A DNA stretch of 64,000 bases from a virus (IMGVR_UViG_3300021387_000299:96001-160000); one strand, 5' to 3'; shown: positions 1-49,688, counted from the first letter of the stretch. The notes: generated from the letters alone by a model not told the origin. Translations and numbers: made by a program.

Positions 1-2220
1 GCCTTGGGATAAGTTCATTTCAAAATCTATATAATATTTTTCGTATCCAGTATAGCCTGCGGGATACAAGTAATCTCTTCCCCAAACATTATTATCTCTA
101 ACCTTAATTAAAAAATCATCATCTCTATAATAACGACGATAATCTTGCGCCATTTGATAGATAATTTCTCTTCAATCTACAAGCTGATATGTTTCTGGAT
201 AATAACTAGATAAATCTACAACTATTGGTTGTTCTGGACTTATAGTTGAATAATCATAGGGCATTTCACCAGGAAATGTAGGTTTATATACATACCAATT
301 AGCTGTTCCATCAAGATTAAATTCTTGATAAATTCTTCCACCTGGAAGAAAATCTTGATACTTATGACCGCAATTTAAAATATGAGTACCTCATTGTTTA
401 GTAATGTCATCTACTCAAATAACTTGAGCATTGGTGCTTTGACTATATCCTAAAGCATATTCATTACCAAGCATTTTCTGATTATCTTCTTTTGAAGGAT
501 AAAAATCCTTTTCTGAAGAATATCTATAATTTCCAAGATGTTTAGAAGGATAATATTTTTTTAATTGTTCTTCTGTAAGATCATCAGGGAATTCTCCATC
601 TTGTAATGCGGCAATAATAGCGTAATATTTCGCTCAGTCTAATACATTTCACCACTCTTCTGATAATCCATTAGGATTACGAGTTTTAGTATAATAGGCC
701 GTTCTTTTTAATTGATTAATTAATCTGACATCCTTTTCTTGTGCATATTCATCCATTCTTTTAGTATATTCGCTCATGCCCTTTTCTGTAACATATATCA
801 TGCCATCAAAATTTTTATATCACATAGGCTTATGATCTATGGCATAGCGCATATGAATAGGAATTTCAACATCCCCACTTTTACGACTTCCTCAAAGGGA
901 ATAATCGTTTTTAATATTACCTACATTTGGAGTATTTGAAATGGTAGAAATTAAAGTATTTTCATCAAATACAAAACCATATTTAGAATTAAATTCTTTA
1001 TCTTCTACTCAAATTTCTCTATTAATATCATGTTCTCCAATAATGTTATTATAATTAACGTCTAGATATGTTCTTTTTCGTTGAAAAATAAAATGTCCAT
1101 CAACATCATAAAAATATTCAAAATTACCAAGCATTTTTACTAATTTGTCTAAAATTGACGTAATTGTTTCTCCAGGAGATCCAATCAAATCATAAGGATA
1201 TACAATATCACAAATGCGGTAGCCGCATACCTGCAACCCATTATCTCGTTCAATTTTTGCAACTGTATATATAGTATTGCTTCCTTTTAACTTCACTCTA
1301 GCACGGTAGTAATTCTTTGTCTCTGTAACAGCTCCAGAAGGATCTAATTGTTCTAATAATTTTTCATAACTGTAAGTTGGTGGGTTCAATGCGCCGGCTG
1401 CGGCCAACTTGCCCGTTTCTGCGATCTTTTCTATCTCACTAATTTTTATATCAAAATCAGTCCAATCCAAACTTTTTGGAGAATCGTTTACTCAATCTAC
1501 CAGCTCAACAGAAACTAATAAATCTGGATTAAAAACCATTTGGGCGACTTCTCTTGAGTCATTAGCACCACTTGCATCGTATTCAATTAAATAATAAAAT
1601 GGTGTCTTACCTTGATATTCCAATAATTCAATTCCATAATCATCTAAATCATTAACAATGATATTCTGTCAAGGTTCTTGCGCATATTCATGTACTGCTT
1701 GTAAAATTATATCTTTAATTGGAATTTGTGTATTTTTAATAGTACCATCTTCTAGGGTTTCATCCATTGTTCCAAAATCCCAAGAAGATGGAATAACTCC
1801 ACCAAAATCACCATTCAATAAAGCCATCTTATCTTTCCCCTGAAGAGAAATCGTATAGTTGTTTGCGCTTAAAGAACAAGAAAATGAAGATAATAAAAAT
1901 ATACCTTGATTAAATCAAATAATATCTGGATAAGTAGGATCTATATGATTTTCTAATCCTATCTCAATTTTAACCTTACTCTTTAACATTCAATAATAGT
2001 CATTGATATTTACTTCGTTTGCAACTAACGTCAAAGAACAAGTACGACGAACAGCAGAAGATCCATCAATGTTAATAGATCCTGCGGTTATACGTCCGGT
2101 GAATTCTTCTATTGGATATTCATTAAAATCTAAAGAGATAACTTTTGCCCAAGTAAATTGATGCTGATATTTACTCAATTGTTCTAAAAAATCTTCATTT
2201 AGCATAGGATTTTTTTGCAT
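1..2220 (-). CDS. Tail-tip/baseplate-type structural protein, TGA-recoded, runs off the left window edge
   Basis: ATG at 2220 after a GGAGG RBS. Track fragments 1990-2220 and 1009-1470 are in frame and joined through TGA codons. Lies at the distal end of the tail module. Confidence 0.7.
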
Positions 2221-2231
2221 AAATTACCTCC

Positions 2232-5200
2232 TTACTTCTTTGACATATAATCATTTAATACTCTAGTTAGCTCTGCAATATATTTTGAATATATTTCTAA
2301 AAGACCACCCGGTTTGCGCAAACGCACAGTTTTCTCTTCTCAAGTTAAGACTTTTTTATTTGCTACATCACCATTGAAAGCATCTAAAGCGTCCATATAT
2401 TTTTGTCGAATAGAAATAAAATCAGCATCAGTAGAGCTACTTTCTAATACATAATCAGTTGTAGTTTTTTGATAATATATATTAGCATAAACACCGTTAT
2501 TTAATAAAACATCTAAAGAATTTGCATCAAGATTATTTAATGTATATTTTTCTAATTCTGCAATACTAATATTTTCATCACCATGTTGGAAACTTGGGTC
2601 ATAGATAAAATCTTCTCCGACCTTATAAACATTACCATTTCATCCATCAATAACATATAAAGGTTCAGCATCCAATATTTCTCGTATTTCTTGATTATCT
2701 TCTAGTGCTAATTGCGCATATGCTAACGATTTATTTACAAGCTCTTCTTCAGCTGTCGTTGCCATTAGCAATCTATCTATAAAATATCTTTCAAGTAAAT
2801 GCTGATAATCATGATTTAATTCTGATACGTAATGATTGTTATTATCTAATTTTAATTGATGCTCAAAAACATTATTACCATCAATTGTCAGACCCTTTAC
2901 TACATAAAAGGCAAATGGTGCAAAGTCCATCATATTTTTATGCGTAAATGGAATTGGATTCGGCTCATAATCTAAATATAAATCAGTTCTAGTTTGATTA
3001 AAATAGCCAAAATTTTCATTATCTTGATCATCCACAATAGTGCCTCAAACATTTCCACTAGGAGCAAAAGAGGATACACTTCCATCATAATAGACATATT
3101 TAATTGGTCTACTAAAAATATCAATTTGATTAATATAGAAAACTTCTTCCTTTTTAGAAACATCTATTCCTTCCAATGTTTGTAATTCTTGGAAAATAGA
3201 TTTTTTGGTTGCCCCAACTAACTGTTTAGCTACGCCTATATTTGTATGAATATTTTCCATTAAATTAAATTCATTTCTATAATTATCTTCGCCCATATAG
3301 GAAATAGTAGGACTAGTTCCCATAAACACATTATTATTACCATCCGCAGATCCTAGAATATAAATACCATAGATTGGAGTTATATCATCAGCAATATAAT
3401 TTCCAGTTGCGCCAATAGTAATAATCAATCCATTATTGCGATTAATAGGTTCTCCCGGAATAAAAAGTCCATCTTGATTAAAAACTAACTGCACCTTTGT
3501 TCCAGGTTTTAAATCAAATAATCTTATAGAAGTTGTAAAAGCACCTTTTCTATCTGCAAAAAATAAATTATTAGAATGTCCATCTTTAAATGAAATATCT
3601 AACAATGATTGTTGTTTTAACGAAGTAATTTGTGAATATACCTGTTCTGCTGGAATTTCTTTTAATATTCCATATTTTATATAATTATTTCTATTTAAAT
3701 CTGCACACTCATATGCGGTCATTGTAACATTGTGTAGCATACGCCCTAAACTCTTTTCAGGTGATAAAGAAACATCCATTAGTCGCACAAGATAATTTCC
3801 TTCTGCGGGTGACTTAAATAGTTTTACTTGTCCATTATTTAGCCAATCTAAAACTTTTAATTTAAATAATCTTTCAGACTGAAGATTTCTTGAAACAAGA
3901 TCAGTATATTTATAAGAATTATGATCATGTTCATTATCATGTCTATGCTCGCGCAAATCTTCTCGATTAATTTCTTCATATGTTGTAAACAACTCATTAT
4001 CATCACTTAACATTGAAATTAATCCTGTAATTGGAAATGATTTATATCCAATTCTTGCGTTTCTAAAAAAGAACGGATATTTACTTCCAATAGTTTCAGA
4101 TCTGGCTTCAGCTAATTGTGTTTTAAAACTAGCAACTTGAGGATTAAATCTTAATTTTAATTGACGAGTTCCATCATATAAAAATATATCCTCAAAATCA
4201 GCATAAATTAAATTACTTTTCTTTCTATTTGTAAATAAACCTTGTTCATTGTATTGTTGCAAAGAATATGTGTAATATTTTCCCTGTTCAATATAAAAAT
4301 CTTTAAATAAAATTTTAGATTCGGTTATCTCATTATTGATAGAAAATTTATATAATTCTTCTCAATAACCAGGATTTAAAGAATCTTCTCTAGAAATTAC
4401 ATACATACCATTAGAAAACTCTGCACCCTCTTCATTATAAAGATATAAATCAATATAACCTTCATCATAATTTAATTCTGCTACAAGATTTCCTCCAACA
4501 GTAGTATCATAAGTTTGAATATTAGCTATAAAATATAGTGGACTAGATTTTATCAAACCATTTGTTGTTGTTACGGTGTATTTAATAGAATAAATTTCAT
4601 CATCTGGAATATCTCTATTAAATGCATAAGTTTCAGTTGCAATATATTCTTTTGAATCGTTTTGAATATTATGTAATAAATCTCCACTAGTATAAGCTAA
4701 AGTACCATCAGGATAAAAAATTTCAAATTTACTAGAATACACTTTTTCAGTAACATCTTTTCCTTCGCCCTGTTCAAAATAACCAACAAACTCTGGTGCA
4801 TTCTTATTAATTTCTGTATTTTCAAAACCTACAATTTTTACAACAGGATCAGAAGTACACTTAATAACTCCAACAGTAGAATAATAACCTTCATTTCCAT
4901 CTTCATCAAAAAAAGCTAATTGAATTTTATAATATTGTCCTATCTTAAATGAAAATAAATTTTCATCCTCATATAGTTTTCAATTTGTTATATAAAAAGT
5001 TACCTGCCCATTAGCATCAGCATCTAAAACTTCATAACGTCCTCCACAATCTGCAGCCTTTACAGAAGCTAAAAGAACATCATTTTGAACTGTTTTAATT
5101 TTTATTTTTGCTGATGTAACATTAGCGACATTAGTTGCTCTATTAAAAGTAAAGGGAATGGTCATTACTCCATTCCCTTTATCATCTAAGCTAAAAGCAG

Positions 5201-5240
5201 GCAACACTCCCTCAAGATAAGGGGGATACAATTTTGCCAT
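2232..5240 (-). CDS. Large tail/baseplate protein (~1002 aa), TGA-recoded
   Basis: Starts MAKLYPPYLEG after GGAGG. Fragments 4980-5255, 4362-4742, 3045-4262 and 2640-3035 share one frame and each ends in TGA. True stop TAA at 2232-2234. Confidence 0.75.
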
Positions 5241-5255
5241 AACTTTTACCTCCAA

Positions 5256-5429: not shown

Positions 5430-5455
5430 ATATCTTTCTCCTTTTTCTCTATATA

Positions 5456-9938: not shown

Positions 9939-12900
9939 TTATTTTCTATTTACATATTGAGTAGCTGAATTAATTAAATTATTTAAAGCTAATTCAATTT
10001 CAGTATGCGATTGCACATTAGGGAATGAAGCTTCAATATGAACGTTTTGATTTAACTCTTCACTACCAATAGAGTTAATACCATTATAATTAATATTATT
10101 CTTAAATACTGATTGCAATTTTGTAGTTGCCTGTGAAGCCATTTGTCTGACGAAACCAACAACTTTTAACATATTTGAAGTATCATCTTTATTTAATACG
10201 AGTTCTTTCTGATGAAGAACTGCCAAGCGTCCAGAATCAGTAGATCAATTTCCAGTATATCCACCAGTATCATAAATACCCTGGGTTGGAATATTTTTAC
10301 CTCCTGGCATAATATAACCAGTAGAAGGTTCTCCTTTAATTGTTTTTGAATCAATACAAGTTGAATCTTCATATAAACGATAAGTACCTGTTACCGTACC
10401 ACGAGCTTTAGCTTCATCAACAACTTTATTAAATGCCGCTTTTGCGCTTGCTCGAGTAGTATACGTTTCGCTTGTGCCTAATGTATAAGCATTTCCACTA
10501 GGAGGATAAATACTATATACCTTTATAGATCCCGTTGGTCCTGATGGTCCAGTGCCTCCAGTGTAAGGTCCTCCTCCACCTGCTCCGCCGCCAGAATCAT
10601 TACCTCCTGCAGCTGCACTATTTGCTGCTGCAACTGCCGCCGCAGTAGCTGATGCTTGTTGAGCTAGTTTAACTTGTGCTTGATATGTTTCACTTAATTT
10701 CTTTAACATTTCATTCAATGCACTAACGGTCGCCTGCGTAGCATTTTGAATACTGGTCATATATTTACCATATTTATCATCAAAATCTTTTGCTGCTTGC
10801 TTTGCATCTTCTAATGCCTTCTTTATGCCATTTTCTTCATTATTAACCATGTCATAAATAGCTTCCTTTGCTTTCTGGCTATCTTCTGCAACGGAATTCA
10901 TATCGGTTTCAGCCTTAGTCGCGAATTCATCGACAGTTGTTCCGGCTTCTTCATAAATAGCATAACAATTATCCTGCCATGTTTGAAGTGCTTCTTCTCC
11001 GGCCGCAAGCATATCTTCTCAAGCTAATTCTCCAGCATCCATTAATTCAGTTAATGTATCATATCCAGTAATTGCACTTAATACTGTTCTATCAAAACTT
11101 GTAATTAAGTCTTCATCGCTTAATAGTTTCATCTGAACAATATTTTCAATGTCTGCTCAATCATCATCTCTAAAGCGCTTTTGCTCATCAAATAATACGC
11201 CCATTTGATCTGTTAATCAACTAAGTTTTGCAATACGTTCTTCATTTAATGCTGCCATTGCTTGAGCATATTCTTCAGTGCCTTCTTTATACTTAGCTAA
11301 GATTTCAGCTTCGCGTTCAGCAAAGTATTGATTTCATTCTAATCATTTAGATTGTAAATCATTAGACATTGAAACCATATAATCTTGATAATCATAGACG
11401 GCTTCAGCGTAATTTTCTTCAGCATCTCCAATAGCATCTTGATCAGCCGTGTAAGTATAACTGAAGTTACCCTCATTATCTCGGGTCATTCTTACTGCAC
11501 TCTTGGCCTGCTGCGCATCTCTTAACTGAGCTTCTGCTTGCAATAATGCAATTCTACGTTCAATAATTCCAGCTTCATATTCTGAAATTTCAACACCGGC
11601 CGCCATTTTCGCATTAATTTCATCAAGAAGATCATTCATCTTGCCTTTAATTAACGTGTTATTAGTATCTTGTAAACTCTTATTAAGTTTTCTTACAGAT
11701 GCATTTAATTCATGATATTTCTTATAATCTGGCAAATATAATTCATTTAACTCTTGTTGAGTTTTAAATTGTTCCGCCATCCAGGTTAAATCCATATCTC
11801 CAAAAGCGTTCTCATAATCTTCCTTCATTAAATCTATAGATTTTTCGAATGCATCATTAGCTGCTTGTAATGCTTCTTCTCAAGCGCTGTAATAATTTTC
11901 TGTAGCGTCAGTATATAATTCTTCTAATTGTTCAAAATGCTCTTTCCAATATTTATAGCTTTGCTCATCACCTTCAAGTTGATATTTCAACATTAGCTTT
12001 TGAGCATCTTCCATTTGCTCGCGCCACTCTTCCATCTGCGCCTTTGCAGCACCGAGCGCATCTTGAGCATTTTTAACAATTTGCTGACTCATCTTTCTTA
12101 ATTCAGAAGATGAAAGTTTTAATAATTTTCTTCCAGTTAAATCAACAATGCTAGCATAATGCTTCATAATATTGCCAGCCTGCTCAATCTTTTCACTCTG
12201 TTTTTCAAACTCTTCTGCCATTGTGGTAATAGTATCTGATAAAATTTCGTGAACTTCATCGGCAGTGTCTTTCATACTGGTATATGTTGTCATTAAGCCA
12301 GATAAGTAATTTCTCAATTGTTCGGCTTCTTTTTCAGTTAACTCACTAGCTAACTGTTCATTTTTCATGAACTCTTGAAGTTGTAAAACCAATTGATCTG
12401 AATTTAAATTATCAAAATCTAAATCAATACCATGATTTGAGAATATTTCTTTAATACCTCTTCGATAATTCTCTCAATCTTGATCGAAAGTTTTCATTTG
12501 CTCATTTAGATTTGCAATTCTATCGGCAGCGCGATCTGCACCATCGCCCATATTATCAAAAATCCATTGTAGCAATTCTCTATCTTTATCATCAAAATCT
12601 AATTGCAGTTTTACTTGTCAATCAATTTTCTCCAATTTAGCATCATAAATTGCATTAATTTGATCTATACGATTATCAATCTGCTCTTGAAGTAAATTGT
12701 AAGTATCTTCATACTGCTTTAAAATTTTCTTATTTTCTTCATATGTTTTTTGTGCTTTTTCAAGAATTTCCTTATCAGCTTCTTCTTGCGCACTTTCGTT
12801 ATAGGTATCAATAGCTTTATTATATGTGGCAGTGATATTAGCCAATACTTGTTCATAGTTAGTAAGCATGCCATTTTCGTCAAAGATAGCACCCATACCA

Positions 12901-33252: not shown

Positions 33253-33254
33253 AA

Positions 33255-35635: not shown

Positions 35636-35665
35636 ATTATACCAGAAATTTTCTATAGTTGTCAA
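35636..35665 (-). promoter_or_regulatory. Sigma-A-type promoter heading the morphogenesis module
   Basis: Minus strand reads TTGACA-18 nt-TATAAT with an extended TG. Confidence 0.7.
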
Positions 35666-35858: not shown

Positions 35859-35875
35859 AAGGAGAAAATTTATTT

Positions 35876-36674: not shown

Positions 36675-37266
36675 TTGCTCTTTTTTTTTCGTGTTTGGGA
36701 TGGAAAAGAGTTTTAGTGGGAGGGATGGGGAGGCATAATCGCTGAGTTAGTTCAAACTAACTAACTTCCCAAAAACCAGCCCCCGTCTATATTTTTCGAT
36801 TGATAAAAATTTCACAAGTACGCCTATAGGCTCTCCCGCTGATCATGAACAAACGGAACAATCAACCGCGCCCGCCTCCCGCAAAATTTTACAAAATACA
36901 GGAAATGTAAAAGTTGCAAAAAAATTCAATTTGGGGCTTGCAATGGTCAAAGAAATGAGTATCATAATAGATGTAAGCACAAAAGGTGCTTAGAACAAAA
37001 AGGAGACAAAGAAAATGAAAAACAATGAAACACTTTACACACTGACAGTTTTCTATCGTGATGAATCCACCTATACATCAAATGTATCCTATCGCACGCA
37101 TGCCTATCAGTTTACTAGCTTGCACGGCCTCCATTCTGCTATGGATTGCGCAATGAGTACCGCAAGAGACTTAACTAGTCAGTATACAAAAGAGCGTGTC
37201 TATAACATGCGTGTTCGTAAGACTGTCATTTTCCGCTAAAACTGAAAACATTGTGAAACATCACAA

Positions 37267-37282
37267 TGTTTCACGTGAAACA
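37267..37282. promoter_or_regulatory. parS: parS site 1
   Basis: Perfect palindrome TGTTTCACGTGAAACA matching the Firmicutes Spo0J/ParB consensus TGTTNCACGTGAAACA. Confidence 0.85.
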
Positions 37283-37301
37283 ATCAGTAAAACGCATTGA
37301 T

Positions 37302-37317
37302 TGTTTCACGTGAAACA
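37302..37317. promoter_or_regulatory. parS: parS site 2
   Basis: Second perfect TGTTTCACGTGAAACA, 19 bp after the first. Confidence 0.85.
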
Positions 37318-37805
37318 ATGCGATACACAAAAAGAAGGGAAGGTAAACACATGAAACATTACAGCATGACCAAAGCTATGACATTGTATCACATTAACAA
37401 CTACGCAACATCCTACACGATAGGTTTTGTCTACGATAGCAGAGTGTATGCTATCTCATTGACCAAAGTACCTAACAGGTGGCTGTATTGGATGTATAAC
37501 GGTAGTCAGTGGGTTGTGCGCATGCGCATTGCACAAGCCGAAAAGATTAAGCTTATTAAAAAGGCGGGCTGTATCTGTTTAGGCAATGAAGCGGAGTTAT
37601 TCAGCAAAGAATCTATCTACAACAAAGGCGATCAGTTTGAGGGCATCATCTACGAAGCTATGACAGGCAAAACATGGCACAAAGATTCAACGCCATGGTG
37701 GAATGGTGCAGACATTGAGACAGCAGGTGCTAGAGTGCAGGTAAAGTTTAACGGTGCAACTGTTGTCAAGATGAATCAGTTGATCAAATACGCATGACTC
37801 ACACG

Positions 37806-38520
37806 GTGAAGCGATAACACCATAACAACACTAATCTATTGAAAAGGAGAAAAATATCATGAAAAGAATCATCACTGTATCAGAACTGAAAAGACAGCTT
37901 GAAGAGTTTGAAAAGATGGGTTGGGGCGATGCTGTCGTATGGTATCGTGACGAGCAGAGCATGGATTACCAGCTTGAAGAAGGCGTATGGGATTGTGACG
38001 ATGATCCCAAGTATGGCAAAGCCATTGCATTAGCGTAAAGCTTAACTAGTGAAGCGATAACACTTAAAACACTAACTTATTATGAAAGAGAGGAAAATAT
38101 CATGGAAAAAAACGCTGTAAACATCACTATTAAGAGCACAAAAGTAGGAGTCAGAGGACTTTACAAACTCAAGAAGGCTATTAAATCAGATTTTGAAGCT
38201 TTCACTTCACTGTCCCCGATTAACTGCACAACTGAATGGAATAACTACTATGTTATCTGTCATGTCAACAACCTCTTTGACTTCTCTGACATCTATGATG
38301 ATGAGACAGCTAACGAAAGGCTTGAGTCTGAAAGAGTCGCAGAATACACTCTTGAAAGATATTATGGGGATATGGTTGTCTGTATCACTCTTACTCTTGG
38401 ATACTCACACAATGAATTGATTATTACAAATCTCAATGTTGATACTGTGATGTATGCCGGAAGCCACATGCTCACATTAGATTAACACTTCAAGGTGAAG
38501 CGATAACACCTAAAACACTA
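37806..38520 (+). repeat. Three intergenic copies of GTGAAGCGATAACAC...AACACTA
   Basis: Exact 15-mers at 37806, 38049 and 38495, each just after a stop codon. Confidence 0.85.
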
Positions 38521-41500
38521 TTTTAATTTACTATAAAACAAATAGAAAAACTAAACGGGGAAAAACATAAATCAAATTTATATTTTTTAATACTCAAAAT
38601 AAAATTAAAAATTGAGTTTTAAATCCTAAAATAAAAGTCAGATCCTAAAATCTAGGCTTTCTATATGCGGCCCCGCGCGCCGGCCGCGGGCGTGGACCAG
38701 CCGGGCGGCGCGATTTTAAAAGCTTTATCGCGATCGCAAATTTTCGGATGGGAAGCTGGCTTGCCCTCTTGGCGCCAAAAGTTCCCAAAAGTGAAAATTA
38801 GGATGAAAATCCCTTTCTTTAATGCTTTAACGTATTAAAGCGTTAGGGCGCCGAGTTAGTTCAGACTAACTAACTCTCCGGCAAAATAGTTGGATTTCCA
38901 ACTATTTTTTTTTACATTAGTCTGCCGAGTTAGTTTAGGCTAACTAACCATAAATGGTTGGATCTCCAACCATTTATTTTAGTTTCATTTCCAACTATGT
39001 TCCAGGAGGCGCATTTGTGAAAAAATTAGCAAACATTTTTTTACAAATGGGTATTGACAAATAGCAGTGTATCCGTTATACTATAGTTGTAAGTTAAGAG
39101 GAGGACAACCCATGATCAACATTCGCACACTCAAAGGACTCAAAGACAACGACGGTTTAACTTTGAAAAATGGAAAAAGAATCACTTACAAAAGCGGTTA
39201 TCAGGTCGCTACAGAAGGCATTGAAACAACCGATGTAAGAGAAGCCATGAATTGGATCAAAATCAATGGCGGCAACTGCGGAGTATGGTTCGCAAATGGT
39301 ATCTACTACATTGACAAGAGTCACAGAGAATCAACCAAAAGAAAAGCTCTTGAAATTGGTAGAGCTTGCAAACAGATTTCAATTCTGAAATGGTCTGACA
39401 TGAGTCTGATCTACTGCTGAAAAGCAGTTTTTTATTTGCGGCGGGGAAGTTTGTGAATGTTTTAACTTTCACAAGCAAGTACGGGCAGTTAGTTTAGACT
39501 AACTAACTCGTGCGCTTTTCAATTTGAAATCATAGATCGTTCCATTTGTCAAGAGAAAAATTTTTTTATTTTTGGTATTGACTTGATCCCGAAATGTGCT
39601 ATAATAATAATGTAAAAAGAAAAAGGAGAAAAAATTATGTTCGTATTAATTTCAACAAATGGAAAAATTATGGGTACTTCTGAGGATGCGGAAACTGTTA
39701 AACTGGCTTATCTCATGTATAAGAAATTGTATCCTCTTAGTGATTTCAAAATTGTGAAAGCTTCCACTCTTAATAAAAAGGGAATCATTAAATTCTTAAC
39801 AGAAAATATTGAAATTAATTAAAAAAGAGGGTTGACAAACCCTTTTTTCGTGTTATAATATAAGTGTAAAAAGAAAAGAGGTAAACAAAATGATGAAAGT
39901 TAACAACCTGCCGGAATACGCTAAAACAAAAAAGTACATCGTCGCAAGACGCGTGGATGGAGAACTTTGGTTCTGGGGCGCGTGGAACGATAGAGACGCC
40001 GCTAATGAAGCCGCTTTAGAGGAAGGCGGAATCACAATCACAAATGATCTTCTGAAAAATGAATGATCATTTTTTTTATTTCATTTCATTTTCATTTGGG
40101 TTTCATTTCATTTTCGTTTGAGTTTGTGAAAATTAAAACTTTCACAAGTTTAAACGGCGCGGAGTTAGTTTAGACTAACTAACTGGGAGTTAGTCTCCGC
40201 TAACGACCCAAAATTATAGCAGAACTGGCGCCAGAAGTCAAGCGAAAAATTGATCAATTTTTTTAAAAAAATTTCATTTTCCCTATTGACAACAGAAATA
40301 AAAGTAGTTATAATAAAAGTGTAAAAAGAAAGAGGTAAAAAAAATGTTATTAAACAATTTTGACGGAATGGTTACAAAAGTAGATGATGAGCATTACATG
40401 ATCTCTGATGAATTTTTTGAAAAAAATAAAAAATGGGCTGGTGATAAAGAAGTCCTGTATGTCCATGAGTTCTTCTATGATGAAGAAATTGAAGATTGGT
40501 TCTCTGCTCAGCTTTATAGAAAAGATAAAAATTTATATTATCTTGAAGAATTGTTCTAAAAATACAAAAGTGGGGGTTGACAAAACCCCCGCTGATACTG
40601 TATAATCTAAGAGAAGATGAGGAGGGAATGACAATGACAATCTTCTATGTATACTACAATAACACTGCTGAAATGTTTGAGGATTTCTACGAAGCCGAAG
40701 CATTCGCTGAAAAAGTTGACGGGATCCTGTCAGACGCATGGGGTGAACCGATCTGCTGATCGGTTTTTTTATTTTGATAAAAAAGATGAATAAGTTGTGC
40801 ATCTTTTTGTTGCATTATTAGAATTTTGAGCGTATAATGATAGTAGAAATAAGGGAGGAACACAAGATGGAATTTGCTGAATTGAACAACCATGAGGAAA
40901 GAATGCTCAATCTCTACTTAGAGTTTTGGATCGAAGAGTCTGAAGGAATATTCGATGACAAAGACGAAAACTATAGCTTCGAAGATTGGTTGGTTGAATC
41001 TGCTGAATGGTTTGCGCAGGAATGCGGAGAACAGTATGCAGAACCCTATCGGCAGGCATTAGCTGAATGGCGGGCTTAAAGCCTGCTTTTTATTCTTAGT
41101 AACTTGTGAATGTTTTATCTTTCACAAGTTTGAGTTAGCGGCCGCTAACGGGTCGAAAAATTATAGCACAGTCCGCCGCAGATGTCAAGAGAAAAATTGA
41201 AAAAAATTTAAAAAAATAAATAAAAAATCCCGAAATTAGGTGTTGACAAATAATAACCAATAGACTATAATAATAATGTAAAGAGAGGTAAGAAAGATGA
41301 AAATCAAGGTTGAATACTCAGAGGGCGCTGGGTGCGTAGCTTCCTATTGTGAAGAATGGTTTGAAGAGTTTGAATCAATCGTGGAGATGGTAGCATTTAT
41401 GAAAAAGTTTGAAGAGCGGTTCCCGGATGCTGAAATTTCATTCCATTCAGATGGTATCCTGTCTATCTGCAGAGAATTATAAAAAAAATTAAAAAGAGGG

Positions 41501-42267
41501 GTTGACAACAACCCCTCAACCGACTATAATAATAATGTAAAGATAAGGAGGACAAAAACATGACACTTTACATCTTCGAAAGAGGCGAGGCACTCGCAAG
41601 AAAGCTCAGCAGAGCTGAGATCAGAAACCACGAAAAGGAATTCGGAAAGCTGATCCGCACAATCAAAAACTACTGCTAAAAAGCAGTATTTTTTTATAAA
41701 AAGTATTGACAAATAATAGCCAGTAGGCTATAATAATAATGTAAAAAGAAGGAGATAAAAAATGAAAGTCCAGTTTAATAAAAATGAAATTGAATACCCT
41801 GAAAATACAATTCCCGTTGAGTTCATCTGCGCTTATAGGGATCAGGCATTGGCTGAAATGGTCCACTGTAAAGATGATCCTGTGAAACATGATCAGTATG
41901 TATTTTTAAGAAAAACTCTTAAAGAAATGATTGAAAATTGGGAAAACATTGTTGACAATCAGTAAAAAAGTGCTATACTATAAGTGTAAAGAAAAGGAGA
42001 ACACAACATGCTGAAATACCTCGGAACAATCAAAAAGTCATCCTTCACTCATCCCACTCACAAATGGGTGGTATCATCTGAAGAACATCCCTTCCGCAAG
42101 TTCCCTACTAGCGGAGAAGGCGCTTCAAGAATGATCAGAAAGATCCGCGCAAAGGGTGAAAATCCTACTATCTATAAACTTGTGGATTAACACAAGTTTT
42201 TTTATTTTAGGTATTGACAGACCAAAAGAAAAATGTTATTATAATAGTGTAAAGAGAGGTAAGAGAA

Positions 42268-42495
42268 ATGAATGAATGGATTCCCTGCAAAGAAAGAATG
42301 CCCGAACATGGCGGCGATTATCTGGTTACGTATTTAGAAGATGGTTGCTGTGATCATCTCACAGTCGGAATTGAAGATCTGTGGATTTCCGAAACTGGAA
42401 AGCATAAATCTTATTCCTGGGCAACAATTCCCAATGAAAACGTTATTGCATGGATGGAATTGCCCGAACCTTATCCATACATTGAAGAAGAATAA
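42268..42495 (+). CDS. DUF551-like phage protein
   Basis: MNEWIPCKERMPE...YLVT...VIAWMELPEPY signature. Confidence 0.75.
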   Translation: MNEWIPCKERMPEHGGDYLVTYLEDGCCDHLTVGIEDLWISETGKHKSYSWATIPNENVIAWMELPEPYPYIEEE

Positions 42496-42955
42496 AAAAA
42501 GTGTTGACAAACACTTTTTTTGTGTTATAATAATAATGTAAAGAGAGGTAAGAAAAATGAAAGAGTATTGCAATGACTGGGAATGCCCGCACAACAAAGA
42601 CGGAGAATGTGTCGCAAATGCTGAAGAGTACGCACAGTGCTTTGATGAACTCTTGGCGGCGCTCTCAAGGCTGAAAAAGTCGCAAGAAAAAAATAAATAA
42701 AGTGTTGACAACAATCCCATAATCAACTATAATAATAATGTAAAGAGGAGGAAACAAAGATGATGCATCTCTCACTGATTAAAACTTACTGCAAGGTGAT
42801 CGCCGAAAAAGGCGACTGGGCGATCTGGTATGAGGACGGTGGCTATAAGTATGCCGAAGTCCTCGACCCCGAAGAGGGTTGGATCTCCTACTCCTGCAAT
42901 TCAGAGTCTGAATGGCAGATGCTCACCGAGAGGTGAGTTTTTTTTGCTTAAAGCG

Positions 42956-43023
42956 TTTGGTCGCGCGCCCACGATCCATGCGCGCGAAACTTCAATTATA
43001 CCACGCGATCAGCAATTTGTCAA
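42956..43023. repeat. Hairpin + leftward promoter element, copy 1
   Basis: Stem 42961-42987; minus-strand TATAAT 42995-43000 and TTGACA 43018-43023. Confidence 0.75.
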
Positions 43024-43102
43024 GCGATTTTTTGCAAAAAAATTTTTTTATTTTTTTTCCTAAAACCCTTGACATTTTTCTAAGGTGTGGTATACTAATA
43101 AT

Positions 43103-43278
43103 GTAAGGAGGGGAGGGCAACCCGAACGGGATGCTCCACGTGAAGCGCGTAAGACCCTTCCGCCAAAGACCTTGCACCGCCCGGAGTCCTGTTGGCGCGG
43201 TATATAAATGTGAACCAAGGAGGCAACTCCAACCCGCGGTTGACCGCTCGCTCTTGGAAAGGGGACGGCAGGACAGAG
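43103..43278 (+). ncRNA. Candidate structured ncRNA
   Basis: Follows promoter 43069-43096; no credible CDS. GC-rich helices GGAG-GCAA-CTCC, GCGG-TTGA-CCGC, CTCTT-GGAA-AGGGG and GTCCTGTTG/CGGCAGGAC. Confidence 0.6.
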
Positions 43279-43574
43279 CAATTTCTTTGAAAAAATACTT
43301 GACTTTCCAGTCAGATGTGCTATACTATACTTGTCAATAGGAGGAACTTACAATGACAGCTAGATATTTCTTATTCCACGATGCAGAGCACGACCAGGAC
43401 TTCGTGGTCTGGGCCCATGACGAGATGGGCGCTTGGCGGTGTCTCTTTGAAGACGACCCCGTCTGGGCTGATGCCCAGGTCACCTTTATCGGTGAAGTCT
43501 CCTACGAGGAGCAGAAAGGAATGAAGCAGTATTATTAAGCTTCATCCTTTTTTAATTAACCATATAGCGCCCGG

Positions 43575-43647
43575 CGTGCCGCCGACGCGCGCTTTTTGCG
43601 GAGGCGGCACGTCCTTCCATTATAACACGCATAGGCAAAAAAGTCAA
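43575..43647. repeat. Hairpin + leftward promoter element, copy 2
   Basis: Stem 43575-43611; -10 43619-43624; -35 (TTGACT) 43642-43647. Confidence 0.75.
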
Positions 43648-43724
43648 GCGCAAATTGCAAAAAATATTCGAAAAATTTTTTTCCTAAAATGCTTGACTCA
43701 TGCCTACCCATGTGCTATACTATA

Positions 43725-43880
43725 AGAGCAGTAAGGGAAAGAGCTATAAAGCGATAGACCAGTGTGCGGACGCTCTCTAAGAATACCGGAAAAACCTTAT
43801 TGCGGAGCCTATTGGTACGGCTTTCATATATGGCTTATGGGAGAAAGTAACTCTGTGCACAAGTTTTTCTCCCATAAGGC
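43725..43880 (+). ncRNA. Candidate structured ncRNA
   Basis: Follows promoter 43693-43721. Helices GCAGTAAGG/CCTTATTGC, GAGC/GCTC and CTTATGGGAGAAA/TTTCTCCCATAAG; no ORF. Confidence 0.5.
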
Positions 43881-44585
43881 TTGACATTTATTTCCAAATC
43901 AATTATAATAAAATTAACAAAAGGAGAAAAGAAAAATGGAAAAAACAAACAACACAATCGCATTGAGAAATGGTCGCTACATCTCTCTCTCTGAAATGGA
44001 ATACAAATATATTTCCAAGACATGTGATATTATCAAATGGTTAGTTATTCTGATGGGCAATTGTGATTATAGTTGCGCATGTGATGAGAATGGAACCTAT
44101 CTCTTCTCAAAAGAAGATTTAAGGCTGTTAAATGATCTTCTTTCCAAAGTAAAAGATATTAAAAAAATTGGACTTTAAAAAGAGTTGACAAACTTTTTAA
44201 AAAATGATATAATAAAAACATAAAGAGAGGTAAGAAAAATGTTTGAACACAATAGCACAGTTCATGTAGTCTACGTTAAAAGCTCCGATTCAGAACAGTA
44301 CAGACAGAAGTACCAGGACGCCGTTGATGAAATTCAGAGACTGAATAGAATCATTGACGAGCTTAAAGAAAAGCTTCAGTCTACAGAAAAGGAACTTCAT
44401 CTCATGGAAATTGCCAACAGTTCCCTTGCAGGAATGGTTGACGATCTGACCGATGAGGTTAATGCTCTCTATGTAAAGCTTCATGACTTCAACAACTAAA
44501 AAATAGCACAAGCTATTTTTTTAATTTAGGGGTTGACATTTGTTCCAATAGTGCTATAATAATAATGTAAAGAGAGGAAAATGAA

Positions 44586-44996
44586 ATGGAAAAAATCGTT
44601 GTATACCTTGACATGGATGGAACTATTGCTAATCTGTATGGCATCAAAAATTGGCTTCCCCGTTTAAGAAATGAAGATGAAACAATCTTCTTGGAATGTG
44701 CGCCGATGGTTACTGAAAGCGAACTGCGCAAACACTTTCCCGAAAGTCTGTATGATGTGCGGATTCTGTCAATGACACCAATGAACGCAAGTGCTGAATA
44801 CTGCATGAATGTAATCAATCAGAAAAACGCATGGCTTGATAAATATTTCCCTTCAATTTCGAAAAGAATCTACCGCAAGTATGGACACAATAAGAATCTG
44901 AAAAATTCACAGTATGCAATTCTGATTGATGATTCAAAATCTATCAGAGAATCTTGGAGAGGTTTAGCTTTTGATCCCGCTATCTATTGGGATTAA
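44586..44996 (+). CDS. HAD-superfamily 5'(3')-nucleotidase-like protein
   Basis: Motif I YLDMDGTIANL and motif IV ILIDDS. Confidence 0.75.
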   Translation: MEKIVVYLDMDGTIANLYGIKNWLPRLRNEDETIFLECAPMVTESELRKHFPESLYDVRILSMTPMNASAEYCMNVINQKNAWLDKYFPSISKRIYRKYGHNKNLKNSQYAILIDDSKSIRESWRGLAFDPAIYWD

Positions 44997-45345
44997 AAGT
45001 TTTTTTTATTTGACTTTTCATTTTAAAATGATTATAATTAAAGTATAAAGAAAGGAAAAATAAAAAATGAAAGTTATTATTAGCTACACTATCTATGAAG
45101 AAAAAGAAATTAAGGTCTCCAACAAGTATGCTATCCTTCGCAATTATCCTGCCGAATTAAATGAACAGCTCAGGCGAGAATGGAGGGCTAAATCTGATGA
45201 ACTTTACACCGAGGCGCTTGAAGCCATTCCCGCAGATGCTGAATTTTGCGCAGTCAGAGACGCCAAAGATGATGAAATTTTATTTGAATTATAATTAAAA
45301 ATGCGGAGACCCCCGCATTTTTTAATTGATTTTTGCTTGAACCTT

Positions 45346-45422
45346 TTGGCGATCCGCGCGCGAGCGTCTTTCTTGCGCGCGGATCGAACTTTCATTATAC
45401 CATGCGATCCAGATTTTGTCAA
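45346..45422. repeat. Hairpin + leftward promoter element, copy 3
   Basis: Stem 45350-45386; -10 45394-45399; -35 45417-45422. Confidence 0.85.
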
Positions 45423-46628
45423 GCGAAAATTGAATAAAAAATTTATAAAAAAAATATCCCAAAATGCTTGACTCCAAGAGCAAAAAGAGTTATTATAGTA
45501 GTGTAAAGAGAGGTACGGAAAATGACAGAGTTTGAAAAGAAATTAATTGGCACTTTGGAAGAGTTCGAGGATGAAGATACTTGCGGAATGTCTTTTGAAG
45601 AATGGCTCATTGACGGAATTGAATTTTTTACAGAAGATTGCAATGAAGAAGGTACTACAGAAGAAGAAATTGAATGGAATAAAAAAGAAATTGCATGGTA
45701 TAAACAGGTTCTTGAAGCTTTAAATAATGGAACGTATGATAACTTAATTTAACCATTTATAAAAAAGAGTTGACAGACTCTTTTTTTGTGCTATAATAAT
45801 AATGTAAAGAGAGGTAAAGCAAATGAAAACATTCACAAGACAGGACATCGCCGAATTAATCGAAAGTATTGGCGGACGTATCCTTGATAACGGAGATGAT
45901 TACATTGAAGCTACTAGCAACTATAGTTGGAATACCCTTTGGTTCCAGTTTGATGAAAATGGAATTTTGATTGGAATCGGTTGCTAAAAAAATAAAAAGG
46001 GGGTTGACAATAACCCCCTAATTAGATATAATAATAATGTAAAGAGAGGAACCAAAAGATGAAACAGTACAAGAACTCAAACGGAACAGTTACAACCTAC
46101 AACATGCGCAATGAGGAAATGGCTCGCAACCTGCGCAAGCTCGGTCACAAAGTCGTTGAAGATAAAAAGAAGAAAGCAAGTAAGAACGCTTGCAGAAAGG
46201 GGTGGGAATAATGACAAGGGAAGAAAAGTCAAAATTCCATCGTGATCTTATTGACCTTTTGACCAACTGTAAAGATGATCAAACATACTATGAAAGAATG
46301 GTTTACAGCTTACAGATTATCTCAAATGAATTAACTTATTTCAAAATCCAAAAGGAAGAAAAATAAAAAAATACTTGCATAAATACTAAAAGCGTGATAT
46401 ACTAAAGATATAGAAAGAAAGAGGTAAAAAAAATGAAACTTACAGAAGAACAGAGAATTATCCTTGACGGCGAAATTACCCTTGCAATTCTTAGATTTGT
46501 TGGGGATGAAAATTTCGATAAAGCGATTGAACGCTATGACGAAATCAGCGAACTCTGTAACACTGCAATTGAAAATTTCCTTGCGACTTGCTAAAAAAAA
46601 TTGGGTAAAAGCCCATTTTTTAGTTGAT

Positions 46629-46706
46629 TTGGCGTCGCGCTCGCGGGCGCTTTTCCTGCGAGCGCGACGTATTTTCCATTATACCACGTATACCAGATTT
46701 TGTCAA
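46629..46706. repeat. Hairpin + leftward promoter element, copy 4
   Basis: Stem 46633-46669; -10 46678-46683; -35 46701-46706. Confidence 0.85.
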
Positions 46707-46799
46707 GCAAAAATTGTGACAATTTGTTGGCAAAAAATTTTCCTAAAATTGACACTTTTGGGGGTTGTAATTGTCATAAAAAAGAGTATAATAATAATT

Positions 46800-47186
46800 G
46801 TCAAGAGGAGAAAGCAACCAACCTCTCCCAAGCGCATAACTTGGTGTAAGTAAAATCGGCACTCTTCACAAAAAATACTTCAAAAACCTCTTGACAAAGT
46901 ATAACGAATCTGCTATACTATAATTGTCAAGAGGGGATGGTTGGGTCATCCCGTGGGGACAGAGCTATCTGATGAACTATAGTAAACTGACCACCATTAA
47001 AAATAAAAAATGCAAAAAAACCTCTTGACAAAGTATAGTAAATCTGCTATACTAAGAATGTAAGAAATGAGGAGAATCCCGTTCGTGGCACAAAGGAAGG
47101 TTGGAAACCGAGGGATCTTAAATGGAAAGCGACAGAACTCTGATAAAAATCCTCTATCAGACAGAGCGCAAAATCCTCAAATTTCT
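46800..47186 (+). ncRNA. Three tandem promoter-driven small structured RNAs (~46800-46868, ~46925-47000, ~47060-47186)
   Basis: Each follows its own promoter, lacks an RBS-led ORF and closes on an end-to-end helix (AAGAG/CTCTT; ATGG.TGGGTCA/TGACCACCAT; GAAATGAGGA/TCCTCAAATTTC). Confidence 0.55.
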
Positions 47187-47262
47187 TCAAAAAACTTATT
47201 GACAAATCTTAAGAAACAGTGTATACTTAAAGTGTAAAAAGAAAGGTAAAAGGTGATTACAC

Positions 47263-47637
47263 ATGGCAGAAAAGATGAACCTCACAGAACAGATTAACTC
47301 CATCGCATTCGAAGGACTGACAGAAGAGCAGTTCGCATTCCTCAAGGAAAGAGCACTGAAGTCTATCAGAAAGCCTTCCAAGACAAAGGCTCTGACCAAG
47401 ACTCAGAAGGACAACCTCGTTTTCAAGGAAAAGATCCTCGCCCTGCTCGGTGAAAAGGGTAAGCTGACCGCTACCCAGATCGGCGAAGAGCTTGGGTGGA
47501 AGGGTTCTCAGAAGGCAACCGCTCTGCTTACTCCGATGGTAAAGGCGGGTACGGTTGTCAGAACCGAAGAAGGCAAGGTCAAGTTCTTCTCCCTTGCCGA
47601 GGTTGAAGAAACCGAAGAAGAAGAAGAAGAGGAATAA
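47263..47637 (+). CDS. Winged-helix DNA-binding protein with acidic tail (paralog of 63655-63996)
   Basis: KLTATQIGEELG...QKATALLTPMVKAGTVVRTEEGKVKFFSL winged-HTH pattern; high-expression codon bias. Confidence 0.7.
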   Translation: MAEKMNLTEQINSIAFEGLTEEQFAFLKERALKSIRKPSKTKALTKTQKDNLVFKEKILALLGEKGKLTATQIGEELGWKGSQKATALLTPMVKAGTVVRTEEGKVKFFSLAEVEETEEEEEEE

Positions 47638-47666
47638 CCCCGAAGGGGCGCAAGCCCCTTCCTCAT

Positions 47667-47742
47667 ACGCCCTTAGCTTAATAGGTAAAGCACTTGACTC
47701 TGAATCAAGAGAGTGAGGGTTCGATTCCCCCAGGGCGCGCCA
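47667..47742 (+). tRNA. tRNA-Gln(CUG)
   Basis: Cloverleaf with anticodon arm CTTGA-CTCTGAA-TCAAG, T-loop TTCGATT, acceptor ACGCCCT/AGGGCGC and encoded CCA. Confidence 0.9.
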
Positions 47743-47748
47743 TTATAT

Positions 47749-47894
47749 GGGAGATTGGATTGCACAAATCTGACACGGCGGGCAGTGCCTGACCGCTTCA
47801 CCTCTGACAGTTGCCGTGAACCTAGGATAACACGGTAAACAAGTGAAAGCGCGTAGAACAGGCGCAATTGGGTTCGACTCCACCTTCTCCCCTA
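47749..47894 (+). ncRNA. tRNA-like RNA (~146 nt) with expanded central domain
   Basis: Ends GGGAGA/TCTCCC, T-arm GGTTCGACTCC, D-like hairpin, internal CACGGC/GCCGTG; starts 6 nt after tRNA-Gln. Confidence 0.6.
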
Positions 47895-47945
47895 AAAAAC
47901 CGCTCCAAGCCAATAGGTCCTCCTCCTTGCCTATTGGCTTTTTAT

Positions 47946-48021
47946 TTGGCGTTTCGTTGCCGGGCGCTTCTCTTGGCAACGAAACGTGTTTCATTATACC
48001 ACACGATCCAGCATTTGTCAA
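47946..48021. repeat. Hairpin + leftward promoter element, copy 5
   Basis: Stem 47950-47986; -10 47993-47998; -35 48016-48021. Confidence 0.85.
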
Positions 48022-48129
48022 GCAAAAATTTCGAAAAAATTTTTTTAAAATATTTTTCCCAAAAGTATTGACACATGCCCTTAATAGTAGTATCATTATT
48101 ACAGATAAAGAAAGAGAGAGGTAAATAAA

Positions 48130-48456
48130 ATGACAAAAGTTGGAACAGTTTACATGGTTACAGAAAAGGGTCTCCGCACAGTAAAGGTTGGTTTCACAAC
48201 AGACTGGGCAAAGAGAAGAGGGAATTATCACACACACAGCACTTGCGCAAGAATCATTGACATTATGGATGGTACAGACACTGATGAAAAGATGTATCAG
48301 CAGAAAATGCTTGAAATGGGATTTACAAAAGCCTTCAAGTATTCTCCAAGAAATGAATGGTTCAGACTTCCTAAGGGCATGAAGAAATCAGAACTCGAAC
48401 ATCTCGGATTCGGAATCTTTCAGAAAGATGAAGAAGAAGATGAAGAAAATGCTTGA
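48130..48456 (+). CDS. GIY-YIG-like (T5orf172-type) domain protein
   Basis: GTVYMV...VKVGFTTDWAKR...E...NEWF motif pattern; stop is TGA. Confidence 0.6.
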   Translation: MTKVGTVYMVTEKGLRTVKVGFTTDWAKRRGNYHTHSTCARIIDIMDGTDTDEKMYQQKMLEMGFTKAFKYSPRNEWFRLPKGMKKSELEHLGFGIFQKDEEEDEENA

Positions 48457-48815
48457 CAAAGCATTTTTTTTGTAGTATTATAATAATGTAAAGAGAGGTA
48501 AAACAAATGAGAATGACATTAAAACTCGCTAATCAGCTTATGGATTCACTCGTATGCCTTGCCATTAGTGCTAATGGCGGTGCAGACTATGACCACTTAC
48601 CAACAGATGAACAGATGGCGTTGGTTACGAAGTATGCCAGCAATAAACTTCTTGAAATTTGCGCAGAATGGGAAGTCCTCAAGGGAGAAGAGTGGGAGAT
48701 TGAAGAACCGGAAGAAGAGGTCGATGAAGAACCCACCCTCGATCTTGACATGGGGTTTGACCCCTACATGGGATGCTACACAGATGACTGCTGAAAAGCA
48801 GTTTTTCTATTTGAC

Positions 48816-48894
48816 TGGGCGGGCCGTTCGCAGGCGTCTTTTCCTGCGAACGGCCCGAGCTTTCCATTATACCACGCGGCAGAAAATTTGTCAA
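48816..48894. repeat. Hairpin + leftward promoter element, copy 6
   Basis: 15-bp stem 48820-48857; -10 48866-48871; -35 48889-48894. Confidence 0.85.
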
Positions 48895-48995
48895 GCATTT
48901 TTTTTGAAACTTTAGTGTCAATTTTTATCCCAAAATGGCACGCCTGGATCTGTGTGCATGGTTTGCTATTGGTAAACTTTTTGTTTAAAAAAGGC

Positions 48996-49688
48996 TCATC
49001 TCTGAGCCTTTCTCCAACAGTTATAGTATAAACCGTACTGCATGTTATACTTCTTAACATTTTTTACAATGTAGCGCAAGATTTCTGTTTCATCTTCTGC
49101 GTCACTTAATGCCGTGTGTTTTTCAACATAGTCATTCTTTCCTGTAATGAACCGATAACAAACTTCTGCATTTGTTTTAAAATTGCCTGCTTCAGAAATG
49201 TAGTGATTTTCTTCTGCAAACTGATGATACCGTTCAGTCTGCAAGATTGTTTCACATGCAAGGTTATAGATACAGAGCAGATTTTTACTCTTCTGATCAA
49301 GGACCTTTGCAAGATTCTGTTTTTCTCTATTGAACAGCTGTTCAGTGTATTTAATAGCTTTGTAGTCAAACTGTAAATTGTATGCGCTGATAGTTGTTAC
49401 TTTAAACTCTTTGATCAATTTCACAATTGTTTCTGAAATTTCTTTCCAATAAACAATCTTTTCAGTTTTCCGTGCCTGCTTGTAATCTTCTGAATACTGA
49501 TTGTAAAATTCTGATGTAGCAAGCATCCACCTTGCATCTCTGTGAAGTTCTCTAACTAAGAACCGATCTTTGTGTAAAATATTGAAATTTTTATCAATGA
49601 TTGTAAATCCAATGTCATGAACCAGCGGAGTCCCAAAATTGCCGATTGTTTCAGTATCAAGCACCATGATGTTGTTTCTTGTTCTCAT
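48996..49688 (-). CDS. DEDDh 3'-5' exonuclease (DnaQ-like)
   Basis: ExoI VLDTET, ExoII AYNLQFD, ExoIII HTALSDAEDE; its TGA stop lies inside a terminator hairpin. Confidence 0.85.
   Translation of the reverse strand: MRTRNNIMVLDTETIGNFGTPLVHDIGFTIIDKNFNILHKDRFLVRELHRDARWMLATSEFYNQYSEDYKQARKTEKIVYWKEISETIVKLIKEFKVTTISAYNLQFDYKAIKYTEQLFNREKQNLAKVLDQKSKNLLCIYNLACETILQTERYHQFAEENHYISEAGNFKTNAEVCYRFITGKNDYVEKHTALSDAEDETEILRYIVKNVKKYNMQYGLYYNCWRKAQR

Follow-up and report, generated by a model that had tools for sequence, protein, structure and literature searches.

We analyzed a window of 64,000 nt, bases 96001-160000 of one 177,819-bp virus record (IMGVR_UViG_3300021387_000299), in which the codon TGA is used in two ways: as tryptophan (Trp) in late genes, which serve virion, tail and lysis functions, and as a stop in early genes. 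A late (morphogenesis) block lies on the minus strand at the left of the window, and an array of short early genes on the plus strand follows (Table 1). The source is a gut or rumen phage of 178 kb (GC content 34%, 29 tRNA genes, CheckV completeness 95%). By terminase, portal and capsid genes, its nearest cultured relatives are large siphoviruses of Bacillota, namely Geobacillus virus E3, Enterococcus phages H1 and EF1, Brevibacillus phage Sundance and SPbeta-like phages; the uncultured human-gut phage phAss-1 is related by the same genes. For comparison, we fetched 79 related loci from IMG/VR, the nearest of which is 176 kb long and has a portal of 85% identity. Stop usage divides the genes into three classes: early genes follow code 11 and some end on TGA, middle genes read alike under both codes, and late genes need code 4. 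Coordinates refer to the window unless marked as genome positions.

TGA stands for tryptophan in late genes

The minus strand of positions 1-35600 breaks into fragments when read in code 11, whereas code 4 yields closely packed genes that have strong ribosome sites. Gene calling by region bore out the split that an earlier note on this DNA had drawn: open reading frames (ORFs) of at least 100 amino acids (aa) cover 0.64 of 1-35600 in code 11 and 0.98 in code 4, while code 15, used as a control, gives 0.66. The note had claimed that most morphogenesis genes are interrupted by TGA only and end on TAA or TAG. Indeed, the ten long late genes contain 63 in-frame TGA codons and no TAA or TAG, and every gene of the 23-gene row in the window ends as described; the other two frames of the same ten genes hold hundreds each of TGA, TAA and TAG. 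Both motifs quoted in the note, YESK*SG and GYL*TGQY, are present (32370-32350 and 29082-29059), and the tape measure, said to have about 20 TGA codons, has 22. The late block in the window is thus open only if TGA is a sense codon. It belongs to a 72-kb block of 44 genes (genome 59562-131600) with 23,493 codons, among them 194 TGA and 120 TGG. With TGA counted, Trp makes up 1.3% of codons, and 62% of the Trp codons in late genes are written TGA.

To assess which residue TGA specifies, we compared 18 late genes with the 79 related loci by codon-level tblastn. At ≥70% identity, 88% of the window's TGA codons lay opposite TGG or TGA; the share was 79% for identities of 45-70% and 67% for those <45%, and the window's own TGG codons scored no better. 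Reciprocally, TGA codons of relatives were found opposite TGA, TGG or aromatic residues of this phage. In Geobacillus virus E3 and Enterococcus phage H1, both cultured and of standard code, 7 of 15 aligned TGA columns hold W; these include TerL codon 299 (W in both phages) and the portal TGA column (W in H1). The remaining residues opposite TGA are Y, F, K or R, not G or C. Coding potential, measured with a 3-periodic Markov model, did not change past late TGA codons (+0.41 versus +0.40 bit per codon) and persisted for a median of 478 further codons. Taken together, these sequence comparisons show that TGA stands for Trp in late genes, in line with the earlier prediction that homologues would carry Trp at these columns. 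The bases that follow sense TGA (A 45%, G 27%, T 21%, C 7%) are distributed about as for all codons, with weak-termination contexts not enriched, and a search upstream of late operons for a common late-promoter motif gave none that was convincing.

Not all late genes contain TGA. The major capsid protein and a major-tail-like virion protein have none, whereas a second TGA-rich gene besides the tape measure encodes 1457 aa with 20 TGA codons. The capsid assignment is backed by 346 Foldseek matches in the PDB (E≤0.001) to HK97-fold capsids and encapsulins, and homologues of the 20821-21945 protein are annotated as virion structural or major tail proteins. For the gene at 28171-29451, which the earlier note had named a protease, the PHROG match has unknown function.

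TGA-containing genes also occur outside the late block. At 58758-59462, coding potential persists past TGA, and codon 45 is TGA in relatives G001, G002 and G004 as well. Left of the window lies a plus-strand island of such genes (genome 13824-19858, 22374-22967 and 26132-26677) for tail-fibre-like proteins, an HNH endonuclease and an endolysin-like protein. With this second island, recoded modules are therefore scattered over the genome. In the HNH endonuclease gene, every TGA falls within the last few codons, and the first may be a stop.

TGA is a stop in early genes

Each unit of the early array consists of a near-consensus TTGACA-N16-18-TATAAT promoter, a conserved AAAGAGAGG ribosome site, an ATG, an ORF of 39-137 aa and a hairpin terminator. 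Promoter-like sites number 129, versus 54 ± 8 expected, and 29 of them are perfect (12/12); terminator-like sites number 45, versus 15 ± 4 expected. Differences from orthologues in four relatives concentrate by codon position (774, 595 and 1318 at positions 1, 2 and 3), which indicates that these ORFs are real genes. Because the Markov gene caller under-calls short early genes (17 of ∼36), we defined them by promoter, ribosome site and ATG.

The 36 genes anchored in this way end on TAA (26), TGA (7) or TAG (3). They contain 57 TGG codons and no in-frame TGA, consistent with the earlier statement that early Trp is written TGG. That note had listed eight early coordinates as TGA ends. All eight do mark a TGA at the end of an ORF, one of them (48996) on the minus strand, but early genes as a rule do not end on TGA, which is a minority stop (7/36). 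The position of these stops is distinctive. For all seven, a run of at least five T begins 1-9 nt later, placing them in the terminator, whereas only 4 of 29 TAA or TAG stops are so close to a T run (hypergeometric p ∼4e-5). Most of the TGA ends, the listed eight and a ninth at 50978, lie in a hairpin with a T run after it; the note had observed the hairpins. Two of the seven are formed by the TGA of the next promoter's TTGACA box. More generally, the -35 TTGACA of many early promoters (39823-53645) forms the loop of the previous gene's hairpin, as in GGGGG-TTGACAAAA-CCCCC, so that terminator and next promoter overlap; further examples are at 40572-40590, 41496-41517, 42497-42520 and 45998-46019.

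Reading through these stops adds little that looks like coding sequence. Coverage of the early region by long ORFs rises from 0.41 to 0.65 under code 4, and the seven genes would gain 2 to 79 residues, running into or past the terminator. Yet the open frame past a non-late TGA stop is just 1-78 codons long, and its coding potential is negative in most cases. Orthologues gave no sign of a conserved extension, the finding that the earlier note had named as speaking against its view. The 102-aa gene stops at the same residue with TAA in L096 and TGA in L092. For the 129-aa gene, whose TGA stop was missing from the earlier list, orthologues have TAA (L090), TAG (L092) or TGA (L094) at the same residue, or TAG one residue later (L091). 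The orthologue in L094 of the gene ending at 42934 has TAA two codons later. Conversely, a gene with a TAA stop at 44994 has TGA in three relatives, and one with a TAG stop at 53847 has TGA in one. Similar exchanges were seen beyond the 36 genes: homologues of the 230-aa minus-strand gene stop with TGA, TAA or TAG, and orthologues of the 166-aa gene stop 3-4 codons later with TGA or TAA (16 codons later, with TGA, in a more distant match in L092). These swaps at the same residue show, on comparative grounds, that TGA is a true stop in early genes.

Middle genes behave differently. TGA stops are rarer than in early genes (1/57 versus 7/36, Fisher p = 0.005), the only case being one TGA-ended call, and middle and replication genes hold 133 TGG codons and essentially no TGA. 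Replication genes thus avoid TGA and have the same reading under either code.

Table 1. Features of the window, with two genome-level features of the tRNA(UCA) operon (positions marked 'genome'; c, complementary strand).
Feature	Position	Strand	Remarks
Late (morphogenesis) block, window part	1-35600	-	23 genes, 16 with in-frame TGA read as Trp; every end TAA or TAG
Tape measure	9939-18341	-	2800 aa; 22 in-frame TGA, 6 TGG
Major-tail-like virion protein	20821-21945	-	374 aa; 0 TGA; phrog_2729
Major capsid protein, HK97 fold	26257-27408	-	383 aa; 0 TGA, 3 TGG
Portal	29465-31108	-	547 aa; 1 TGA; phrog_2739, E 3e-79
Large terminase (TerL)	31468-33252	-	594 aa; 3 TGA; 48% identity to Geobacillus virus E3, 47% to Enterococcus phage H1
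Sigma-like regulator, first late-block gene	34548-35600	-	350 aa; phrog_5767 'sigma factor', E 4e-49
Consensus host-type promoter of sigma-like gene	35636-35665	-	TTGACA, 18 nt, TATAAT, with TG
166-aa gene with TGA stop	37297-37797	+	No clear plus-strand terminator at stop
Early array, ∼35 single-gene units	39054-55288	+	Standard code, Trp as TGG only
TGA stop, 102-aa gene	39418-39420	+	Loop of hairpin ACTGC-TGAAA-GCAGT, then T run
TGA stop, 58-aa gene	40064-40066	+	T run begins 3 nt later
TGA stop, 43-aa gene	40757-40759	+	Within terminator hairpin 40745-40766
TGA stop, 58-aa gene	42934-42936	+	3' arm of terminator hairpin 42921-42938
TGA stop, 108-aa gene	48454-48456	+	Part of next promoter's TTGACA -35 box, which is the loop of the terminator hairpin
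TGA stop, 95-aa gene	48792-48794	+	Loop of hairpin 48786-48803; coding potential negative past stop
230-aa gene with TGA stop	48996-49688	-	Stop in 3' arm of hairpin GGCTCA-GAGA-TGAGCC, then T run
TGA stop, 129-aa gene	50978-50980	+	In TTGACA hairpin loop
TGA-containing gene beyond late block, function without name	58758-59462	-	234 aa; TGA at codons 45 and 175
tRNA(UCA)	genome c58412-58506	-	95 nt; G73, encoded CCA end
73-aa ORF, head of tRNA(UCA) operon	genome c58920-59141 (L119:1021-1242)	-	No known family

A suppressor tRNA and the proposed change of code

The earlier note had proposed a UCA-anticodon tRNA and/or inhibition of release factor 2 (RF2), encoded outside the window or unrecognized within it. 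The tRNA is there, 37.5 kb to the left of the window, with a long extra arm (loop UCCAU). It lies in a TGA-free operon comprising a TTGACT-17-TATAAT promoter, the 73-aa ORF, an Hsp20-like ORF, the tRNA, a 133-aa ORF and a terminator, directly following a holin-like gene (2 TGA) and an endolysin gene (1 TGA; choline-binding repeats). ARAGORN labels the tRNA 'SeC' because of its UCA anticodon. Six-frame searches of the genome, in which controls were detected, found neither RF1/RF2 domains (PF00472, PF03462) nor a tryptophanyl-tRNA synthetase (TrpRS; PF00579), so the RF2 part of the proposal is without support here. The 73-aa ORF occurs in TGA-type relatives G001, G002 and G003 and is absent from the complete standard-code genome G005. 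We regard it as a candidate for an accessory factor in the change of code.

In relatives, the suppressor tRNA was easily missed. BLAST of tRNA(UCA) against them gave no match, and plain ARAGORN called no suppressor tRNA in G001 or G002, the nearest two of the TGA-recoded relatives. Using synteny and the intron option of ARAGORN, we found a syntenic tRNA(UCA) in both of these TGA-type genomes (L108:5248-5516, equivalent to G001 96747-97015; G002 101637-101911), split in the anticodon loop by an insert of 178 nt (G001) or 201 nt (G002). The G001 insert matched the whole Rfam Intron_gpI model with E 0.0016 and 22.7 bits, below the gathering score of 50, and carries an AGACUA...AUAGUC core. By sequence, then, the inserts are intron-like, and split tRNA(UCA) genes could explain 'missing' suppressor tRNAs in recoded phages. 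Within the tRNA cluster, ARAGORN also made a tmRNA-like call in G001 (c147276-147625) and G002 (c138397-138751) and none in this genome. The predicted tag peptides are alike, ending in ...NFFAPSYQVALAC and ...NFFAPSYQVTFAC; these may be false calls or a phage tmRNA.

Recoding is widespread among the relatives. Of the 79 loci, 36 are TGA-recoded, 35 are TAG-recoded (with TAG opposite Gln) and 8 are standard. A portal tree requires at least five code changes and has two separate TGA clades, with the clade of this phage nested among TAG-recoded lineages. Across all clades, certain genes stay nearly free of recoded codons. Summed TGA:TGG and TAG:CAR counts were 1:69 and 1:382 for the capsid gene (one recoded codon each in two loci), 0:48 and 0:311 for a 241-aa gene beside it, 0:6 and 0:135 for a neighboring 201-aa gene, and 0:35 and 0:166 for the major-tail-like gene. 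These counts suggest selection against recoded codons in the highest-copy proteins. The sigma-like gene, by comparison, is recoded in 29/29 TGA-type and 30/30 TAG-type loci. In this phage its in-frame TGA codons are 222 (34935-34937) and 298 (34707-34709), both TGG in standard-code and TAG-type relatives, and they fall in a part weakly resembling sigma regions 3-4. Pfam, NCBIfam, a PDB profile search and Foldseek gave no match for the protein. With an AlphaFold2 model (pLDDT 75), the top VIA-align structural match was a weak one to sigma-H (3mzy_A, Z 6.9, 76 residues within 201-300); SigB and WhiG were also among the matches, all below the level that would exclude chance. A shared 'operator' (ACAATTGT) 3' of the -10 box in the promoters of the sigma-like gene and the tRNA operon was considered as a regulatory link and dropped, as the pairing exists in this genome only: G001 keeps the element at the tRNA operon, not at the sigma gene, and G002 lacks it.

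Several features suggest that the host is a cell-walled member of the Bacillota with the standard code. These are the host-type promoters, the TGA stops in genes that such promoters drive, a wall-binding lysin (choline-binding repeats above the Pfam cut-off), the Bacillota hosts of all cultured relatives, and the bins of metagenome-assembled genomes (MAGs) that hold relatives, 9 of 10 of which are Bacillota. The explanation we favor, with a probability of roughly 0.85, is that the phage is written in two dialects and that, in such a host, its late genes are completed through its own tRNA(UCA) outcompeting RF2. Host polymerase would transcribe the early array from its consensus host sigma-A promoters, and likewise the tRNA operon and the sigma-like gene, and early proteins would be made under the host's code. 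As charged tRNA(UCA) accumulated (charging with Trp is predicted), TGA would increasingly be read as Trp; the sigma-like protein, and then the late proteins, would be completed once TGA is read; and rising suppressor activity would delay and dose late proteins. All steps from the build-up of tRNA(UCA) onward are ones we infer. Rising suppressor activity fits the need for two read-throughs in a sigma-like gene with a host promoter, and the absence of TGA from the capsid and major tail genes. Because the tRNA operon has a host-type promoter, the change of code may be gradual and not a discrete switch.

More tentatively, and with considerable doubt, recoded stops could do more than mark late genes, acting as a translational gate and dose control that includes early shut-off. 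As a gate, the host-transcribed sigma-like gene may yield a full protein only with tRNA(UCA) at work, so that late transcription would be held back until the code has changed; this would amount to an AND gate, possibly conserved across all TGA- and TAG-recoded lineages of this family. As dose control, TGA per gene may fall as virion copies rise, from 20-22 in tape measure and tail proteins to 0 in capsid and major tail. As shut-off, ribosomes may, after the change, pass early TGA codons to the end of the message, with the products tagged and destroyed.

A number of points weigh against the two-dialect account with its change during infection. That timing is deduced from the genome, and the host and its code from features of the phage and its relatives. 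The promoter of the tRNA operon is host-like and could be active from the outset of infection, which speaks against an abrupt change. Genes with 20-22 TGA codons require very efficient read-through, but our searches turned up no factor that acts on RF2. The sigma assignment comes from a PHROG name and a weak structural match. Finally, because the loci are related, the clade-wide counts stand for a handful of lineages, perhaps three to five independent ones. Some of these points would suit a reading that we take seriously but consider less likely, in which there is no discrete switch: suppressor tRNA is present from the start of infection, TGA is ambiguous throughout, late yield is low, and TGA stops of early genes do no harm, since they lie where the transcript ends. 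This would agree with the near-consensus promoter and TGA-free genes of the tRNA operon, with the lack of any encoded RF2 inhibitor, RF1 or TrpRS, with the proximity of all seven early TGA stops to T runs (versus 4/29 for TAA and TAG), with the avoidance of TGA in high-copy virion genes, as expected if read-through were always incomplete, and with the 'soft' switch argued by Pfennig et al. (10.1101/2022.06.29.495998). But unless read-through were near complete, genes such as those with 22 TGA codons (2800 aa) and 20 TGA codons (1457 aa) would give almost no full-length product. Moreover, that all recoded lineages have recoded the sigma-like gene is better explained by a gate than by noise, and a stop containing G may fall in hairpins simply because stems need G and C.

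Two other explanations fare far worse. Phage and host could both use code 4, as with a Mollicutes-like host, and early ORFs would then continue past TGA. Low GC content (34%), the rise in early coverage with some longer frames open, and MAGs of relatives labelled Bacilli in one case and Erysipelotrichaceae in another are compatible with this idea, but the comparisons above largely refute it: early orthologues stop with TAA or TAG where this phage has TGA, and coding potential drops past early TGA codons that sit inside terminators. In addition, unlike in code-4 organisms, TGA is essentially missing from replication genes, which use TGG; the endolysin has cell-wall binding repeats; and the phage carries a tRNA(UCA) that a code-4 host would already supply. 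We therefore regard it as very improbable. More remote still is the idea that TGA encodes Gly (code 25), Cys or selenocysteine, or that the late genes are pseudogenes or assembly errors. Apart from the 'SeC' label, which reflects the anticodon, TGA lies overwhelmingly opposite TGG and otherwise opposite residues that include neither Gly nor Cys, and the Trp content of late genes is normal only with TGA as Trp. As to pseudogenes or misassembly, the same pattern recurs in 36 related loci from independent samples.

Comparison with known recoded phages and other elements of the window

Stop-codon recoding in phages has been published before (Ivanova 2014; Yutin 2021, PMC7886860; Borges 2021, 10.1101/2021.08.26.457843; Pfennig 2022, 10.1101/2022.06.29.495998). 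One of the closest descriptions is that of Agate-type gut phages of Firmicutes, which recode TGA to Trp and have a mean genome of ∼154 kb (10.1101/2021.08.26.457843). Compared by description, the likeness covers genome size, host phylum, habitat and code mix: a large genome; structural and lysis genes that contain in-frame TGA alongside standard-code replication genes; a suppressor tRNA(UCA); dispersed recoded modules; close relatives that are TGA, TAG or standard; and animal guts. Borges et al. emphasize that TGA stops disappear before recoding sets in; here, 19% of early genes still have one. Jade phages have an RF1/TrpRS 'code change operon'; this phage is without one. As in the block-coded phages of Mgcod (10.1101/2022.06.29.495998), one block needs code 4 and the other, rich in early and replication genes, is near-identical under either code. 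In this phage, the proteins of 29/36 early genes and of almost every middle gene are the same under both codes; unlike the neutral block of Mgcod, the other 7 early genes differ by 2 to 79 residues.

The phAss-1 phage (proposed Phassvirus; PMC10607447) has a homologous portal (34.5% identity), TerL (43.8%) and capsid protein (49.6%). Its group resembles this phage in human-gut relatives, late-gene recoding and suppressor tRNAs, but phAss-1 recodes TAG to Gln in 136 kb, as opposed to TGA to Trp in 178 kb. CrAss-like phages (PMC7886860; Ivanova 2014) likewise show reassignment only in the late part, suppressor tRNAs that are sometimes 'missing', and code shifts over short phylogenetic distances. 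They are, however, Bacteroidota podoviruses; this phage belongs to an unrelated lineage with siphovirus-type gene order, a tape measure and cultured Bacillota-infecting relatives. The code changes on our portal tree echo findings of Borges et al. and Yutin et al. in other groups. As far as we have read, three things go beyond the recoding papers cited: TGA stops kept in early terminators, the convergent gene-by-gene pattern and the split suppressor tRNA of relatives.

This phage is a clear further case of a virus running two genetic codes in one cell. Consensus host promoters, together with TGA/TAA/TAG swaps in relatives, show the same codon as stop and as Trp in one genome. Standard gene callers shatter ∼40% of this genome, so correct annotation needs two codes. 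The gene-by-gene pattern is common to independently recoded TGA and TAG lineages and offers testable reasons for recoding, namely timing via a gated regulator and dosing of low-copy proteins.

The early array holds other elements as well. About ten perfect TTGACA-17-TATAAT promoters on the minus strand (40213-54692) face left against the early genes, at 41188, 43023, 45422, 46706, 48021, 48894, 51184, 52782, 54249 and 54650. They form a repeat family (D4/D6/D11) and adjoin long G+C-rich hairpins (e.g. 45350-45386, 46632-46670, 47949-47987 and 54577-54613), and may represent antisense or small-RNA units. Between the first early genes (36734-40183) are five copies of a 22-nt element with the inverted repeat GTTAGTT-N-AACTAAC (family D18), which looks like an operator. 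A lone plus-strand tRNA-Gln(CUG) lies within the array at 47667-47742, well away from genome 175-8256, the site of the main tRNA cluster and of another tRNA-Gln(CUG).

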